Shown here: piece by piece, positions 2,012 through 10,263 of the stretch | Position numbering within the stretch: position 1 is the stretch's first letter | Layout: each line of letters starts with the position of its first letter | UHGV virus genome: UHGV-0103744 | Direction: 5' to 3' (one strand) | DNA length: 14,629 nucleotides | Source: a virus | Notes under the pieces: generated by a model | Seen by the model: the letters and a program-made list of their open reading frames with translations, nothing else | The model's database searches: none | Told to the model about the DNA's origin: nothing | Position numbers and translations under genes: made by a program

Positions 2012-2033
2012 AAAAAAGGAGCCTGTAGCTCCC
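2012..2033 (-). terminator. Candidate intrinsic terminator on the - strand inside the leftward operon
   Basis: Perfect 5-bp stem GGAGC / GCTCC with 5-nt loop (2018-2032), followed on the - strand transcript by U6 (+ strand A6 at 2012-2017). Confidence 0.5.
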
Positions 2034-2054
2034 TGATGATTTTGCTTTTCATGT

Positions 2055-4157: not shown

Positions 4158-4454
4158 TTATACCTCTGAATCAATATCAACCTGGTGGTGAGCAATGGTT
4201 TCAACCATGTACCGGATGTGTTCTGCCATGCGCTCCTGAAACTCAACATCGTCATCAAACGCACGGGTAATGGCTTTTTTGCTGGCCCCGTGACGTTGCA
4301 AATGATCGATGCAGAGTGATTCAAACAGGTGCTGGGGCAGACCTTTTTCCATGTCGTCTGCCAGTTCTGCCTCTTTCTCTTCACGGGCGATCTGCTGGTA
4401 GTGACGCGCCCAGCTCTGAGCCTCAAGACGATCCTGAATGTAATAAGCGTTCAT
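4158..4454 (-). CDS. gam: RecBCD inhibitor Gam (GamS form, 98 aa)
   Basis: [60 protein letters not shown]... matches lambda GamS; 5 bp upstream of bet. Confidence 0.9.
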
Positions 4455-4529
4455 GGCTGAACTCCTGAAAATGGCTGTGAAAATATCGCCCGCGAAATGC
4501 CAGGCTGATTAGGAAAACAGGAAAGGGGA

Positions 4530-4820
4530 TTAGTGATTCAGGCCGTTACCGCGTCCGTCGAGAAAAACTTCCACGAGCAAATCACGGGTATAAGTGCGCT
4601 CGATGCCGCGATGCAGATATAGCCGTCCGCGTAAATTAGCTGATGCAGTCCAGGTACCATCTTTGTGTTTGACCAGCATTCCTGGCATGACCGCACCTCG
4701 ATTAACGGTCTGCGTTCCATAATGTTGATGAACCATAAAAACTCCTGCCCGTAAGCTGGGCTGCTGAACATATAGAGACTTCTGCGCGTATTCAGGCGGT
4801 GGATGGCCGCCGGTTGTCAT
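4530..4820 (-). CDS. Hypothetical PL-proximal protein (96 aa from the first ATG; the 136-aa ORF in the track begins at a TTG)
   Basis: GC-rich ORF occupying the first-gene position of the leftward operon (where N/cIII/kil sit in lambda) but with no recognisable similarity to N, cIII or Kil. The annotated 4940 start is a TTG; the first ATG (4818-4820) has GAGG about 10 nt upstream. The true start is uncertain. Confidence 0.4.
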
Positions 4821-4999
4821 AACTAAGTCGCCTCGTTGAAGCGACTGAGGTATGAAGTGTTGAGTTGATTTCAGCTGGTCACACCGACGTTCACGCGTCC
4901 GCTTCACCCCTCGCACTCCCCGGAGCCTGCTGAAATTCAAGCTGCGGATCTAAGCGGTCATCGCAACGGTGAATCAGGTGATTGCCGTATCGTTGTGTT

Positions 5000-5090
5000 G
5001 TTGCGATGAATTCATTTAAAACTATAGTTGTTTTATCGTCAACAACAAAAGTTGTTTTATTGGTTGTTTTAGATATAACTGGTTGTATTT
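5000..5090 (-). promoter_or_regulatory. OL/PL-like leftward promoter with repeated repressor operator half-sites
   Basis: On the - strand: TTGTTGACG (-35; + coords 5037-5042), 17-bp spacer, TAAATG (-10; 5013-5018). The spacer (aaaacaactatagtttt, 5018-5034) is 16/17 identical to the PR spacer. Further AACAAC/GTTGTT-containing repeats at 5041-5058, 5061-5070 and 5077-5090. Confidence 0.6.
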
Positions 5091-5180
5091 AGGATGGATT
5101 TATTTTGTGACTTGCATCGCATAGCGATAACCGAAGCGGGGTTGTGGTGGTTTTTTGAACGGTGTGTGATGAGGGGAGGC

Positions 5181-5208
5181 AAAAGAAAACCCGGCACGAC
5201 GGCCGGGG
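5181..5208 (-). terminator. Intrinsic terminator ending the repressor-proximal (cI + 287-aa gene) transcription unit
   Basis: On the - strand, GC-rich hairpin CCCGGC-cgtcgt-GCCGGG (5190-5207) followed by UUUUCUUUU (+ strand 5181-5189); begins 4 bp downstream of the 287-aa ORF stop. Confidence 0.7.
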
Positions 5209-5211
5209 AAA

Positions 5212-6075
5212 TCATTTCGCATCTACAATAAATAACCTGTTTATCTGGCCTTTTTTAACAGTAGCCTTTGCGGTTATAGTGAATACTGCAGATGGATCAC
5301 CTTTGGTTGATATATATGCACTAAGAGCTCTAATATACGGGTTATTCTTCTTTCCTGCAGCTGGATCGCTAATTTCAGCAGTGATTCTCTTTTTTGAGTC
5401 ATCACCATCTAAAATTATTTTAGCTGTCATATTTTGTGCATCAAATTCTGTAAGAAAAGCACGATACTCACGAAGACCGAGAACTTCATCATCATCAAGC
5501 CTATCAATTTCAGCTTTATCTCTCTCGTTAACTTTTAGAAGGCAGCCGTCAACATTTGTTGCAACACTTATCTGATCGCAAGTATTACCAATAGGTGATA
5601 CTGCCTGCCTTACAGAGGGGCGAAGCTCTACAGCCATTCGGTCAATCAAAGAGATCAACTTATCAATGGTTCCAGCATCCTTGTTTCCTAGTGCCTCTAT
5701 GGCCTTTTCAAGTGACTGCTGCAAAGCTTTCATTTCATCTTTCTTGTTAGAATTTCTCGCAAAAATATATTGTAGTATTGCGCCAAGTATAGTTGCGGCG
5801 ATCCCCGAGAACAACTGGTTCTGAGTGGCGAAGTTAAGAACTGCTTCAAGAGTAAAGCAGTTAGCTTTTGCTTCGCGTGCGTAAACCTTAACTTCCTGAT
5901 AATTAATGTATTTACTATATTTTTGTGTAACAGAGAAAGAAGCTGCTGTTGAGAGAACTTTAGAAAAACCCTTTAGGGATTCTCCTAGGCAGTTCAAATC
6001 TATTTCATGATTTAAAGCATCTTTTCCGTCATACCTAAAAGAGATTTTTATATCCTGTAAAGCGTCACAATCCAT
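5212..6075 (-). CDS. Orphan 287-aa protein in the rexAB-equivalent slot (downstream of and co-oriented with cI); one predicted hydrophobic helix; function unknown
   Basis: Long uninterrupted ORF; visibly AT-rich relative to flanking phage genes; lies between the cI stop (6142) and a strong terminator (5181-5208); hydrophobic segment [19 protein letters not shown] followed by a charged, helical-looking region. No family recognised. Confidence 0.7.
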
Positions 6076-6141: not shown

Positions 6142-6831
6142 TTATCCATGTTTCCTGTACGTCTGGGGCATGCTCCCAATAACCTTACCGAAGATGAACA
6201 CCCGGTTCATCTCGTCTTTCTCGATCGGGTCCCACGGTGAGTAGCTCTTGTTATCAGAGATAACCAGCAGCTTATCCTTCATCATTTGCAGGCGCTTTAC
6301 ATGGGCGGTGTCGTCGTACAGAAACGCATAGATGCCATCACCGTCGAAAGATTTAACCGTGATATCAACGAACAGCAGATCACCTGGTTCGATCGTTCCT
6401 GACATGCTGTCACCACGCACGTTAATGATGCGGATATTTTCTGCCTTCCTACCATCGAACATGTGACGAGCATCGTCAAACGAGTACTCAACCGAGCGTA
6501 GAACTTCTACAAACTCACGGTTGATGACTCCCGGCCCGGCACTCACTTCTATATCAAGAACGTCAATCTTAAAGTATTTGGAATGGCTGACAGTTGATTG
6601 TATTGGTTGCACTGTACTGTCTGACATATTTCCAACGCCAGAAGATAACCATTCTGCGCGCACACCCAAAGCGTTCGCGATCTCCACGATTTTAGTTGTT
6701 TGGTTAGCTTTCCCTGTTTCGATTTTCTGAATAGCAGCTTGGCTAACCCCGACCAAATCCCCAAGCGCCTTTTGTGTAAGGCCTCGCGCTAATCTGGCTT
6801 CTTTAAGTCTTTCTGAGAGTGTTGTTTTCAT
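6142..6831 (-). CDS. cI: CI-type prophage repressor: N-terminal HTH (XRE family), C-terminal LexA/S24 autopeptidase domain
   Basis: HTH region LTQKALGDLVGVSQAAIQKIETG; S24 signature GDSMSGT (catalytic Ser) and downstream Lys (VKRL). Divergent from the cro-like gene across an operator-rich 104-bp region. Start taken at MKTTL (6829-6831), because the longer 251-aa ORF would begin inside the PR operator. Confidence 0.85.
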   Translation of the reverse strand: MKTTLSERLKEARLARGLTQKALGDLVGVSQAAIQKIETGKANQTTKIVEIANALGVRAEWLSSGVGNMSDSTVQPIQSTVSHSKYFKIDVLDIEVSAGPGVINREFVEVLRSVEYSFDDARHMFDGRKAENIRIINVRGDSMSGTIEPGDLLFVDITVKSFDGDGIYAFLYDDTAHVKRLQMMKDKLLVISDNKSYSPWDPIEKDEMNRVFIFGKVIGSMPQTYRKHG

Positions 6832-6935
6832 AGTCCAAATGTACAACCAAGGTTTTATTTCATCAAACGAAAATGGTTGTTGACTAAAAACAACCATAGT
6901 TTTAATCTTGATTCAAATTAACCACGGAGGTTGTT
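6832..6935 (+). promoter_or_regulatory. OR region: PR promoter, operator repeats and presumably PRM on the opposite strand
   Basis: TTGACT (-35; 6880-6885), 17-bp spacer, TAATCT (-10; 6903-6908), then GGAGG RBS before the cro-like ATG at 6936. Operator-like repeats: acaaccaaggtttt (6843-6856), inverted repeat atggttgtt / aacaaccat (6873-6881 / 6889-6897), and aaaacaaccatagtttt (6887-6903). Confidence 0.7.
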
Positions 6936-7166
6936 ATGAACCCAGCTATCAAAACAGCGATCAATATCGTTGGTTCACAAAAGAAACTGGGCGCTGCCTG
7001 CGAAGTTTCACAGCAGGCCGTCTATAAGTGGCTTCACAACAAAGCAAAGGTATCCCCTGAACATGTCGGCAGCATTGTTACGGCTACTGGTGGAGTAGTG
7101 AAGGCATACCAGATTCGCCCGGATCTTCCGAAGTTGTTTCCACACACCGAAAAGAACGCAGCTTAA
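6936..7166 (+). CDS. Cro-like HTH regulator of the YdaS type (76 aa)
   Basis: Small HTH protein (GSQKKLGAACEVSQQAVYKWLHN) transcribed divergently from cI off PR; resembles Rac YdaS-type Cro analogues from memory. Confidence 0.75.
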   Translation: MNPAIKTAINIVGSQKKLGAACEVSQQAVYKWLHNKAKVSPEHVGSIVTATGGVVKAYQIRPDLPKLFPHTEKNAA

Positions 7167-7235
7167 ATTTCCATTTCACGCTCTTTAACAATAAGCAATC
7201 AACTTAACAGTCAATTCAAACTAAAGGAGTCAATT

Positions 7236-7861: not shown

Positions 7862-8791
7862 ATGGCAAACACTGCTGAGATATTCAATTTTCCTGTGCCG
7901 GATGCGGCACAAAAGGAGCCGCGCGTGGCAGATCTCGATGATGGTTATACGCGCATTGCAAATGAGTTGCTGGAAGCTGTAATGCTGGCCGGATTAACAC
8001 AGCACCAGCTTCTGGTCTTCCTGGCTGTCATGCGCAAAACATATGGCTTTAATAAAAAACTGGATTGGGTGAGCAACGAGCAACTTTCCGAGTTGACCGG
8101 GATATTGCCGCACAAGTGTTCTGCTGCAAAAAGTGCTCTGGTAAAGCGTGGGATTTTTATTCAGAGCGGGCGGAATATAGGCATTAATAATGTGGTCAGT
8201 GAATGGTCAACATTACCCGAATCAGGTAAGAAAAATAAAGTTTACCTGAAAGAGGTAAATTTACCTGAATCAGGTAAGAAAAGTTTACCCAAATCAGGTA
8301 AAGGCACTTACCCGAATCAGGTAAACACAAAAGACAAACTAACAAAAGACAATATAAAACCTTATTCGTCCGAGAATTCTGGCGAATCCTCTGACCAGCC
8401 AGAAAACGATCTTCCTGTGGTGAAACCGGATGCTGCAATTCAGAGCGGCAGCAAGTGGGGGACAGCAGAAGACCTGACCGCCGCAGAGTGGATGTTTGAC
8501 ATGGTGAAGACCATCGCGCCATCAGCCAGAAAACCGAATTTTGCAGGGTGGGCTAACGATATCCGCCTGATGCGTGAACGTGACGGACGTAACCACCGCG
8601 ATATGTGTGTACTGTTCCGCTGGGCATGCCAGGACAACTTCTGGTCCGGTAACGTGCTAAGTCCGGCCAAACTCCGCGACAAGTGGACCCAACTCGAAAT
8701 CAACCGTAACAAGCAACAGGCTGGCGTGACAGCCGGAAAATCAAAACTCGACCTGACAAACACTGACTGGATTTACGGGGTGGATTTATGA
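7862..8791 (+). CDS. O: Replication initiator O (lambda O-like), ori iterons embedded in the coding sequence
   Basis: N-terminal domain VADLDDGYTRIANELLEAVMLAGLTQHQLLVFLAVMRKTYGFNK... parallels lambda O; contains an iteron-encoded linker (LPESGKK repeats) and is followed by an overlapping P gene. Start taken at the ATG with GGAGG RBS (7862); the track's 7772 start is probably an over-extension. Confidence 0.85.
   Translation: MANTAEIFNFPVPDAAQKEPRVADLDDGYTRIANELLEAVMLAGLTQHQLLVFLAVMRKTYGFNKKLDWVSNEQLSELTGILPHKCSAAKSALVKRGIFIQSGRNIGINNVVSEWSTLPESGKKNKVYLKEVNLPESGKKSLPKSGKGTYPNQVNTKDKLTKDNIKPYSSENSGESSDQPENDLPVVKPDAAIQSGSKWGTAEDLTAAEWMFDMVKTIAPSARKPNFAGWANDIRLMRERDGRNHRDMCVLFRWACQDNFWSGNVLSPAKLRDKWTQLEINRNKQQAGVTAGKSKLDLTNTDWIYGVDL
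8213..8360. repeat. Origin of replication: five 17-bp palindromic iterons plus an adjacent A-rich tract
   Basis: TTACCCGAATCAGGTAA (8213-8229), TTACCTGAAAGAGGTAA (8242-8258, degenerate), TTACCTGAATCAGGTAA (8261-8277), TTACCCAAATCAGGTAA (8285-8301), TTACCCGAATCAGGTAA (8308-8324); followed by acaaaagacaaactaacaaaagacaatataaaacc. Same layout as lambda ori inside O. Confidence 0.8.
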
Positions 8792-9779: not shown

Positions 9780-9815
9780 ACTATGTACATAAAAATATCA
9801 TTTTTTAATACATGT

Positions 9816-10007
9816 CTAATTATTGGACGAAATTGGTTTTTGCTTTGGTTTAGTTAGCCTAGCAATCAAGCCAGAGGCAATAATGATGATCCAAGCAATT
9901 TGATGCAATGCTACTCCAATATAAGAACCTTTATAGATAATAAAGGCATAGATCGCTAGAAACGAAATAAATATCCATAACGAAAGTTGATAAATTTTGG
10001 CGCGCAT
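9816..10007 (-). CDS. Possible small hydrophobic membrane protein (63 aa from first ATG), opposite strand, in AT-rich cargo
   Basis: Two hydrophobic stretches (LSLWIFISFLAIYAFIIY and IAWIIIIASGLIA); AT-rich context; the track start (10022) is a TTG and no convincing RBS is seen, so this may not be a real gene. Confidence 0.3.
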   Translation of the reverse strand: MRAKIYQLSLWIFISFLAIYAFIIYKGSYIGVALHQIAWIIIIASGLIARLTKPKQKPISSNN

Positions 10008-10263
10008 ATTTAATCCAATCAATCAGAAAGACGAGTAATCATAGAGGTACTATCACCCGGGTAACTATTGCTATTATGAACGGATAGGATAGAGGCTTCA
10101 ATAACATATGCATCAAGTATGATGGAATATGTAGATGAAAATGACTTGTGTCAAATTTGTGGAAATGAGTACCATGTTTCTCTGAAATTGATGTCGTTAA
10201 TGGCTAGTGATAGTGAACTTTTTTACTTTATAATTCCTTTGGTTATAACAATAAGGTAAATTT

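Follow-up and report, generated by a model that had tools for sequence, protein, structure and literature searches.

In phage lambda, the site right after the leftward early promoter PL holds N and nutL. HK022, a lambdoid phage lacking N, carries structured RNA (putL) at the very start of its PL transcript, with a copy on the PR side (putR). The early PL operon is also the place, beside the recombination genes, of the kil genes of the Rac prophage and of phage phi80; Rac KilR is described in one account as blocking cell division (PMC12482147). Here we compare with these systems the corresponding locus of the virus genome UHGV-0103744, of which a stretch of 14,629 nucleotides (nt), hereafter the window, was analysed. 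It covers the early part of a lambdoid prophage whose closest phages are Bievrevirus members (4A7, Perceval) and several ECOR-derived phages.

We read positions 4530-5042 as the start of the PL operon in an N-less, Bievrevirus-like prophage, where an untranslated leader of ~270 nt is followed by kil, and we put the probability of this reading at about 75%. Taken alone, its main components, namely the identity and start of kil, the non-coding nature of the frame extending upstream of it to a TTG codon, the stem-loop at the 5' end of the transcript and a conserved RNA element in the leader, are held with high confidence.

Kil and its start codon

A sequence-only reading of the locus had described the first gene of the leftward operon as an unrecognised, GC-rich open reading frame (ORF) without similarity to kil. 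The ORF is present as it was given (4530-4940, minus strand, with a TTG start and an in-frame ATG at 4818-4820), but it is itself a kil of another family than that of lambda. Its GC content is only marginally raised, 50.3% against 47.7% for the window. Residues 60-136 of the 136-amino-acid (aa) translation match phrog_294 in PHROGs ('Kil protein for bacterial septation inhibition', E 1.4e-38). NF008465, the NCBIfam FtsZ inhibitor model of Rac KilR, matches through positions 1-70 of its 73 (E 1.8e-17), position 1 falling on residue 69, which is ATG 4736. A search of a large protein database returned 149 homologues, mostly of 67-68 aa, named 'cell division inhibitor protein' and carrying PF27398. 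Identity reaches 36% with K-12 KilR (BLASTP, E 9e-13) and 41% with phi80 kil, and an alignment with K-12 KilR and members of six genera is colinear from Met1.

By homology, then, the ORF is a KilR/phi80-type Kil, of the family of FtsZ or cell-division inhibitors, with a conserved start at ATG 4736. This start, aligned with Met1 of KilR, is a third option next to the two that had been weighed, TTG 4940 and ATG 4818. The Shine-Dalgarno (SD) motif AGGAG (4742-4746) lies five nt before it and is unpaired in the predicted folds. With 68 aa as against 73, the protein aligns from start to end with Rac KilR and phi80 Kil and shares their place in the early PL operon beside recombination genes. Lambda Kil has no sequence relation to this family, which is why the gene had been missed. 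In an O157:H7 prophage of RefSeq, the Prokaryotic Genome Annotation Pipeline (PGAP) calls a gene of the same 207 nt and names it 'phage encoded cell division inhibitor protein'; Perceval, 4A7 and HK225 carry a Kil annotation as well. As first gene after PL, kil stands directly upstream of gam-bet-exo, in the same order as in Perceval, 4A7 and the O157:H7 prophage. The match is also clear homology to a non-regulatory protein, at odds with the N-like antiterminator that had been considered for the ORF.

Upstream of ATG 4736, the long frame does not evolve as a gene. From TTG it reads LNFSRLRGVRGVKRTRERR..., and the arginine-rich run RGVRGVKRTRERR behind the start had been likened to the RNA-binding motif of N proteins. 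Across 24 distinct versions of 4821-4940 from related phages, 22 sites vary, falling 10/4/8 on codon positions 1/2/3 without third-position bias. Among the changes are R>W, R>C and, at 4847, a C>T that puts a TAG in frame, this last variant being carried by 27 fetched loci; a 1-nt insertion near 4910 breaks the frame in one relative. Residues 1-68 match no PHROG family even at E 0.1, and PGAP never called the TTG-4940 ORF in the E. coli genome rows or in the O157:H7 prophage annotation. To judge from its sequence, the arginine-rich stretch is leader and not protein; with the stop codon, the frameshift, the codon counts and no match to an N family, the N-like reading was abandoned.

The kil leader holds a conserved RNA element

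At least 120 IMG/VR contigs, with unrelated flanks on both sides, share a nearly invariant block of ~62 nt (4793-4855, minus strand); it was a 37-nt match to phage HK225 that pointed to this block. The region 4790-4858 folds at -25.8 kcal/mol (z-score -4.85), and no shuffle does as well. Its first hairpin, hp1, is long and irregular, the second, hp2, is a nearly invariant stem and 7-nt loop, and a third, hp3, lies just before the SD of kil (Table 1). A 6-bp stem (4826-4831/4841-4846) previously noticed just before ATG 4818 proved to be the core of the larger hp1. This hairpin does matter. Within hp1, GAGG (4831-4834), which resembles an SD, and the AUG (4818-4820) are both base-paired.

The element can be defined as an irregular hairpin flanked by CAUAC, with the apex UUYAYNGAG, closed by GUUAUG or GUUAUC and followed by GGCGG-CYAUCCA-CCGCC. 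A covariance model gives 79.3 bits to the window (4793-4855, minus strand), which is itself a row of the seed alignment, and 40-82 bits to independent members. Degenerate gapped patterns returned mostly chance matches and were filtered by folding.

The middle of the hp1 stem can be wholly different and still pair: AGUCGC/GCGGCU, ACCGCA/UGCGGU, AGGCGUCU/AGAUGCCU, ACAGCA/UGCUGU and AUCUGC/GCGGAU all occur, the divergent stems coming from Siccibacter, Citrobacter and IMG/VR contigs (kil loci of other genera, and scans). Among 22 hand-picked variants, 93.7% of the cells are paired (82.7% in shuffles) and 36 are compensatory (9.9 in shuffles); double-sided changes affect 7 of 21 pairs, including 6 of 9 in hp1, and the covariation score is 0.265, as against 0.04-0.06 with partners slid. 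For 67 distinct variants, in an alignment that was fitted to the model and is thereby biased towards structure, the corresponding values are 93.7% paired cells (78.8%), 165 compensatory cells (46 +/- 6), double-sided changes in 12 of 21 pairs (10 of 16 in hp1) and a score of 0.378 (0.03-0.09). The raw sequences of the variants display the same compensation.

The second hairpin is maintained in another manner. It is kept while being read in three frames (GGHPPP, RRPSTA, PAAIHR), and it stays fixed in lineages whose hp1 has diverged. For hp3, GCCC/GGGC gives way to GCGC/GCGC in 5 of 15 sequences, a weak signal from a stem of 3-4 bp. Some U.G pairs never change (U17.G25); as these become C.A mismatches on the other strand, the element acts as sense-strand RNA in the PL transcript. 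The leader thus holds a conserved RNA element made of hp1, hp2 and probably hp3, in which the stems covary and parts of the loops are fixed.

A separate stem-loop opens the transcript. The perfect 10-bp inverted repeat reported at 4958-4967/5000-5009 is present; we checked it by reading the sequence, as the repeat scan had a minimum length of 12. The outer stem-loop (4955-5010) folds at -15.1 kcal/mol (z-score -3.58, 0 of 200 shuffles as good) and, in two promoter types, coincides at its start with the predicted +1. The closing stem is fully or largely kept in four of five promoter/immunity contexts and has 5 bp in the fifth, while the interior changes. The inner palindrome at 4972-4983, although present, is not conserved, the commonest relatives reading AACCA or AACTA. 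The stem-loop probably protects the 5' end of the transcript. The leader had been called structured, and this 5' stem-loop and the region 4790-4858 indeed beat their shuffles, but the middle leader does not (z-score +0.29); nor do the last 56 nt before kil (+0.69). The middle leader is found only in this phage group, and the stretch 4845-4874, with more C than G, has a rut-like composition.

The leader stretch 4737-4880 occurs in 2231 of 5426 complete E. coli genomes (41%), and no coding sequence is annotated under it in a listing of 40 E. coli genome rows. In some loci the complete hp1-hp2-hp3 leader stands before a different first gene, and kil comes later. The model recovers the hp1 part alone in lambda and HK022 (27.8 bits each), 20-30 nt upstream of cIII; likewise, hp1 without hp2 precedes cIII homologues in IMG/VR contigs. 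The lambda hairpin, ACGCUUCACUCGAGGCGU, lies between ea10 and cIII. What lambda and HK022 share with the present leader is CAUAC(C), a hairpin with a UUCAC..GAG apex, GUUAUG and a short ORF from that AUG; they differ in lacking hp2 and hp3 and in having cIII, not kil, behind. In HK022 (L003 6442-6489, minus strand), the 5' flank CAUAAC is fully complementary to GUUAUG, and the UGA of a 9-codon leader ORF overlaps the cIII AUG, a classic coupling arrangement.

In other phages an intrinsic terminator usually stands immediately before the element. What precedes this terminator is a set of unrelated accessory genes, and on these grounds a shared upstream gene such as N was rejected. Three early-left operons hold two copies each (L484 380-1720, L399 520-1080 and L476 800-1340, all minus strand), every copy right after an intrinsic terminator and before the next small gene group, one of AUG type and the other of AUC type. 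The window is unusual in that its single copy lies ~150 nt after PL, not after a terminator, and in that its short frame is fused to kil. Since the element is present in lambda (with N), in HK022 (with put) and in this phage (with neither), it is independent of the type of antitermination; it stands at the start of the kil/cIII gene group no matter which such system a phage has.

Some variations on this layout were seen on the way. In L217 (4756-4821, minus strand) and L188, six or seven U follow right after hp2 (GGCGGCCAUCCACCGCCUUUUUUU); hp2 would there be an intrinsic terminator overlapping the leader ORF, in an attenuator-like layout. In many loci, L119, L172, L217 and lambda (L151 826-850) among them, many unrelated accessory genes end with ...AA-stop, the stop codon lying inside a shared terminator hairpin, GCCGCC-UAA..-GGCGGC, which seems to travel together with the element. 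Between PL and kil, ~230 nt before the latter, prophages of Leclercia and Citrobacter youngae (L128, L136) carry a different structured leader, with a covarying hairpin (CCGAC..GUCGG or CCGG..CCGG) around the loop GGCAUAyGAAkA.

We found no literature in which this hairpin is presented as a conserved regulatory element; searching full texts for the sequences gave only a recombineering paper. Rfam 15 has no match at gathering score in the window and only chance-level ones (E >= 3.4) in 4400-5300. Three described RNAs were rejected as relatives by their location: lambda PreS/LPR1, at tL2a between ea10 and ral; svsR, at the cI 3' end; and the Pas small RNAs (sRNAs), near structural genes. K-12 differs in carrying the sRNA KilS upstream of kilR, without sequence similarity to the present leader (blastn-short matches of 7-10 nt only, E >= 0.16), and the covariance model of the leader element has no match in the Rac locus.

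Promoter, terminators and antitermination signals

The PL-like promoter is borne out: both boxes are present, and the call is sound because the operators overlapping it recur at PR. The OL repeats pair invertedly with the OR region 6862-6905 (three pairs, one at 95% complementarity), to which one direct repeat adds. The promoter, read from the sequence, is absent from the list of a simple promoter-consensus scan; its layout agrees with that of PR (TTGACT-17-TAATCT), and its predicted start is ~5007-5009. The strong terminator expected before the dksA-like gene, xis and int is real as well, with an 8-bp stem and six T (TTTTTTATTATT), in RNA AGGGAGC-UAC-AGGCUCCUU followed by UUUUUU; we place it at 2016-2034, minus strand.

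Table 1. Features of the leftward operon, its leader and their surroundings (positions in the window)
Feature	Position	Strand	Description
5' stem-loop of the PL transcript	4958-5009	-	10-bp closing stem UCAUCGCAAC/GUUGCGAUGA, 32-nt interior
Middle leader	4858-4957	-	G-rich, then C-rich and G-poor; non-coding; contains TTG 4940 and the 'arginine-rich' codons
hp1	4817-4855	-	irregular 16-bp hairpin UCAUA.CU.AGUCGCUUC-AAC-GAGGCGACU.AG.UAUGA; minimum free energy fold
Leader ORF	4737-4820	-	AUG 4818-4820, 28 codons before Met1 of kil; in frame with kil, no stop between
hp2	4795-4811	-	GGCGG-CCAUCCA-CCGCC; stem and 7-nt loop nearly invariant
hp3	4747-4761	-	GCCC-AGCUUAC-GGGC; kil SD AGGAG 4742-4746 directly behind
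kil	4530-4736	-	68 aa, KilR/phi80-type; start ATG 4736, stop TAA 4530-4532
PL promoter	5014-5042	-	-35 TTGACG 5037-5042, 17-nt spacer, -10 TTAAAT 5014-5019; read from the sequence
OL operators	5016-5056		AAAACAACTATAGTTTTAA 5016-5034; palindrome AACAACTTTTGTTGTT 5041-5056
Intrinsic terminator just upstream of PL	5190-5207	-	ends the cI-DUF7946 transcript; 6 GC pairs, then TTTTCTTTT
Strong intrinsic terminator in the leftward operon	2016-2034	-	between the orf61-like gene and dksA-like, xis, int
Leftward genes			int 50-1213; exo; bet; gam 4158-4454; then the ORF under study
Rightward side			cI 6142-6897; YdaS-type cro; YdaT-type cII; O, P, ren, ninB, rusA, Q
DUF7946 + DUF7947 gene, rex position	5212-6075	-	287 aa; downstream of cI, own terminator behind

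The statement that neither N nor cIII lies between PL and gam stands at the sensitivity of Pfam, PHROGs and NCBIfam, and no ORF of the whole window matches an N family in these three collections. The kil leader occupies the site where lambda has N and nutL, but the minus strand of 4530-5042 shows no boxA (YGCTCTTWA, <=1 mismatch), and the PL leader has no boxB-like hairpin (5-bp stem with a G-first, A-rich loop of 5-6 nt). A put covariance model built from HK022 putL, putR and four relatives (six sequences) gives 97.5 and 56.7 bits to the two HK022 sites, and at best 7.4 bits in the window (E 1.5), at 7889, outside both leaders. The phage resembles HK022 in being lambdoid, N-less and provided with structured RNA at the very start of its PL transcript; it differs in the absence of any sequence or structure match to the put model, in its stem architecture and in having no PR-side copy, as paired put-like copies after PL and PR were not found and the leader element is single-copy in the window. 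In sum, the phage is genuinely N-less, put-less and, on the left, nut-less.

On the right arm stands the only boxA consensus, near-perfect and of rrn type (CGCTCTTTAACAA), at 7179-7191 on the plus strand, 13 nt past the cro stop. No boxB-like hairpin accompanies it (local fold z-score +0.5). It is limited to this immunity type (6 phage records), Perceval having a GC hairpin in its place. This boxA may serve Nus-factor-only antitermination. Two G-poor motifs are common to the PL leader and the post-cro transcript, in the same order: CGCAGCUUrAAUUUC at 4932-4946 and 7157-7171, and AAUCAACUyAACA at 4858-4870 and 7197-7209. They could be rut-like or nut-like; chance is an unlikely cause if only the two leaders are compared.

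Two further observations concern the neighbourhood. The rex position is filled in relatives by SIR2 (O157:H7), by a hypothetical and a membrane protein (Perceval) or by an ASCH protein (4A7), and it looks like a variable site for defence-like cargo. Between ren and the next rightward gene, ~480 nt (9780-10263) have no sizeable plus-strand ORF; a 46-aa ORF and one of 68 aa on the minus strand are all they contain.

What the element may do

We propose that hp1-hp2 would be a cis-acting post-transcriptional control that limits or times the dose-sensitive proteins encoded behind it. As hp1 pairs the SD-like GAGG and the leader AUG, it would keep ribosomes from entering the leader unless cleavage, heat or a factor opened the helix. 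The hp2 loop, which is invariant, resembles the binding site of a partner, and Kil itself would be translated from its own exposed SD. The joint conservation of the helix, the apical motif UUYAYNGAG and the hp2 loop CYAUCCA points to recognition by such a putative partner. As for a specific gating mechanism acting on kil, we advance it tentatively, at somewhat worse than even odds.

In 56 of the 67 distinct variants, the window included, the SD-like GAG(G) pairs with CUUC, and the AUG, 10-12 nt downstream, pairs with CAU. The part of the hp1 stem that covaries freely is the spacer between the two, as expected of a locked initiation region. Such regions are known from type I toxin mRNAs (hok, tisB), the RNA-phage coat-protein operator and the alternative structures of lambda cIII, and the likeness lies in an SD-like motif and an AUG paired in one hairpin before a toxic gene. 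Here, however, a whole clade has lost the AUG through a compensated change, and the Kil SD is exposed; no antisense RNA or alternative fold was identified.

Several observations weigh against our account of the gene and its control, in addition to the model-fitted alignment mentioned above. The protein scores 63 bits against NF008465, under the curated cutoff of 92; it belongs to the Kil family but is no equivalog of Rac KilR. In the window and in about 64 of 66 close relatives, the leader ORF and kil form one continuous frame. AUC replaces AUG, with a compensating C-to-G opposite, in 11 of the 67 distinct variants; this clade, found by an hp2-anchored scan, reads GAUAC...GUUAUC, with a C-G pair turned into G-C. 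The locked start codon was downgraded as a conserved feature on its account, and a locked ORF is not universal. Because the AUG can be lost by a compensated change and the length, frame and stop of the ORF vary (in relatives it stops after 10-45 codons, in varying frames), we take the structure, not the ORF, to be what is conserved. A conserved polyproline leader peptide, MTTGGHPPP, was rejected with the same variable ORF end and the three reading frames of hp2. Lastly, the gating model leaves the apical motif and the hp2 loop without explanation; by eye, the loop pairs with nothing consistent in the kil start region or hp3.

The main alternative, which we regard as unlikely, makes hp1 an RNA-processing or termination signal: an RNase III site splitting upstream accessory transcripts from the kil/cIII mRNA, or the relic of a tL2b-type terminator. 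The ~16-bp helix has two conserved 1x1 internal loops, and T7 RNase III sites have a similar helix with internal loops. The usual position of hp1 right behind an intrinsic terminator also fits, as do its repeats behind successive terminators of a single operon and the lambda hairpin with UUUUU behind it, ~30 nt before cIII. RNase III reportedly stimulates lambda cIII translation (Altuvia 1987), and tL2b presumably lies near 33494, close to the hp1-like hairpin; J02459 has no terminator features. On the other hand, outside lambda hp1 is not followed by a U-run, and its 3' flank pairs with the 5' flank instead; the fixed apical motif and hp2 would be unexplained; and the window has no upstream transcript to be separated from kil.

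Alternatively, the real product could be a 96-aa Kil made from ATG 4818, with the leader ORF as its N-terminus. The unbroken frame just described, a GAGG 10 nt upstream of ATG 4818 and a PHROG alignment that starts 9 residues before Met69 speak for it. We nevertheless think it improbable. The SD-like motif and AUG are buried in a helix of about -17 kcal/mol, whereas Met 4736 has its own unpaired AGGAG five nt upstream. Relatives with the same leader (L118, L099, L039) carry a stop or a frameshift, the ORF of other phages is absent or ends at least 40 nt before the next gene, and the named homologues have 67-68 aa.

The absence of N, nut and put in spite of a strong terminator before xis and int would fit another role, that of a put-like cis-acting RNA which makes polymerase termination-resistant and replaces N; two stem-loop elements with conserved unpaired bases do stand early in the PL transcript. 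This is very improbable: neither leader is hit by the put model, which does recover putL and putR, PR is not followed by a second copy, and the element is also present in lambda and HK022, which have their own antitermination. Moreover, in other phages it is mostly downstream of a terminator and can repeat within an operon. We rate just as low the broader proposal that hp1-hp2 and the 5' stem-loop form a cis RNA that recruits a factor or acts on polymerase, giving Rho resistance and passage of 2016-2034. If true, lambdoid phages that lack N, nut and put would have a third way, besides N/nut and put, of achieving delayed-early expression.

The near-invariant block could also be a recombination linker at a mosaic-module boundary, devoid of RNA function, for which the mobile regulatory cassettes of T4-type phages offer a precedent (PMC2839356). 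Its flanks are unrelated between phages, the genes upstream are extremely diverse, and it sits exactly between the variable accessory region and the kil-gam-bet-exo module. Yet compensatory changes preserve the helix even where the whole stem sequence has been replaced, G.U pairs that only the sense strand allows included, and hp2 is fixed where hp1 diverged; such a linker is scarcely credible. Finally, a divergent N-like antiterminator starting at TTG 4940, whose arginine-rich N-terminus would bind a boxB-like leader hairpin, has in its favour the arginine run behind TTG, the lack of another N candidate in the window and the hairpins of the leader, and is practically dismissed by its 68 C-terminal residues being Kil, by the interrupted frame with its radical R>W and R>C changes and missing family matches and gene calls, and by a PL transcript devoid of boxA and boxB.

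A lambdoid phage without N, nut or put, and yet with a boxA after cro, raises the question of how delayed-early transcription escapes termination. The kil gene itself is routine and already named in RefSeq; the lasting value of the locus lies in its conserved leader RNA. A covarying fold of ~60 nt, absent from Rfam, stands before toxic or lysogeny-controlling genes (kil, cIII) of many lambdoid phages. We see an even chance that it represents a genuine, uncatalogued family of regulatory RNA of lambdoid early-left operons, present even in lambda. The element is in any event a testable candidate for the gating of Kil or CIII expression.

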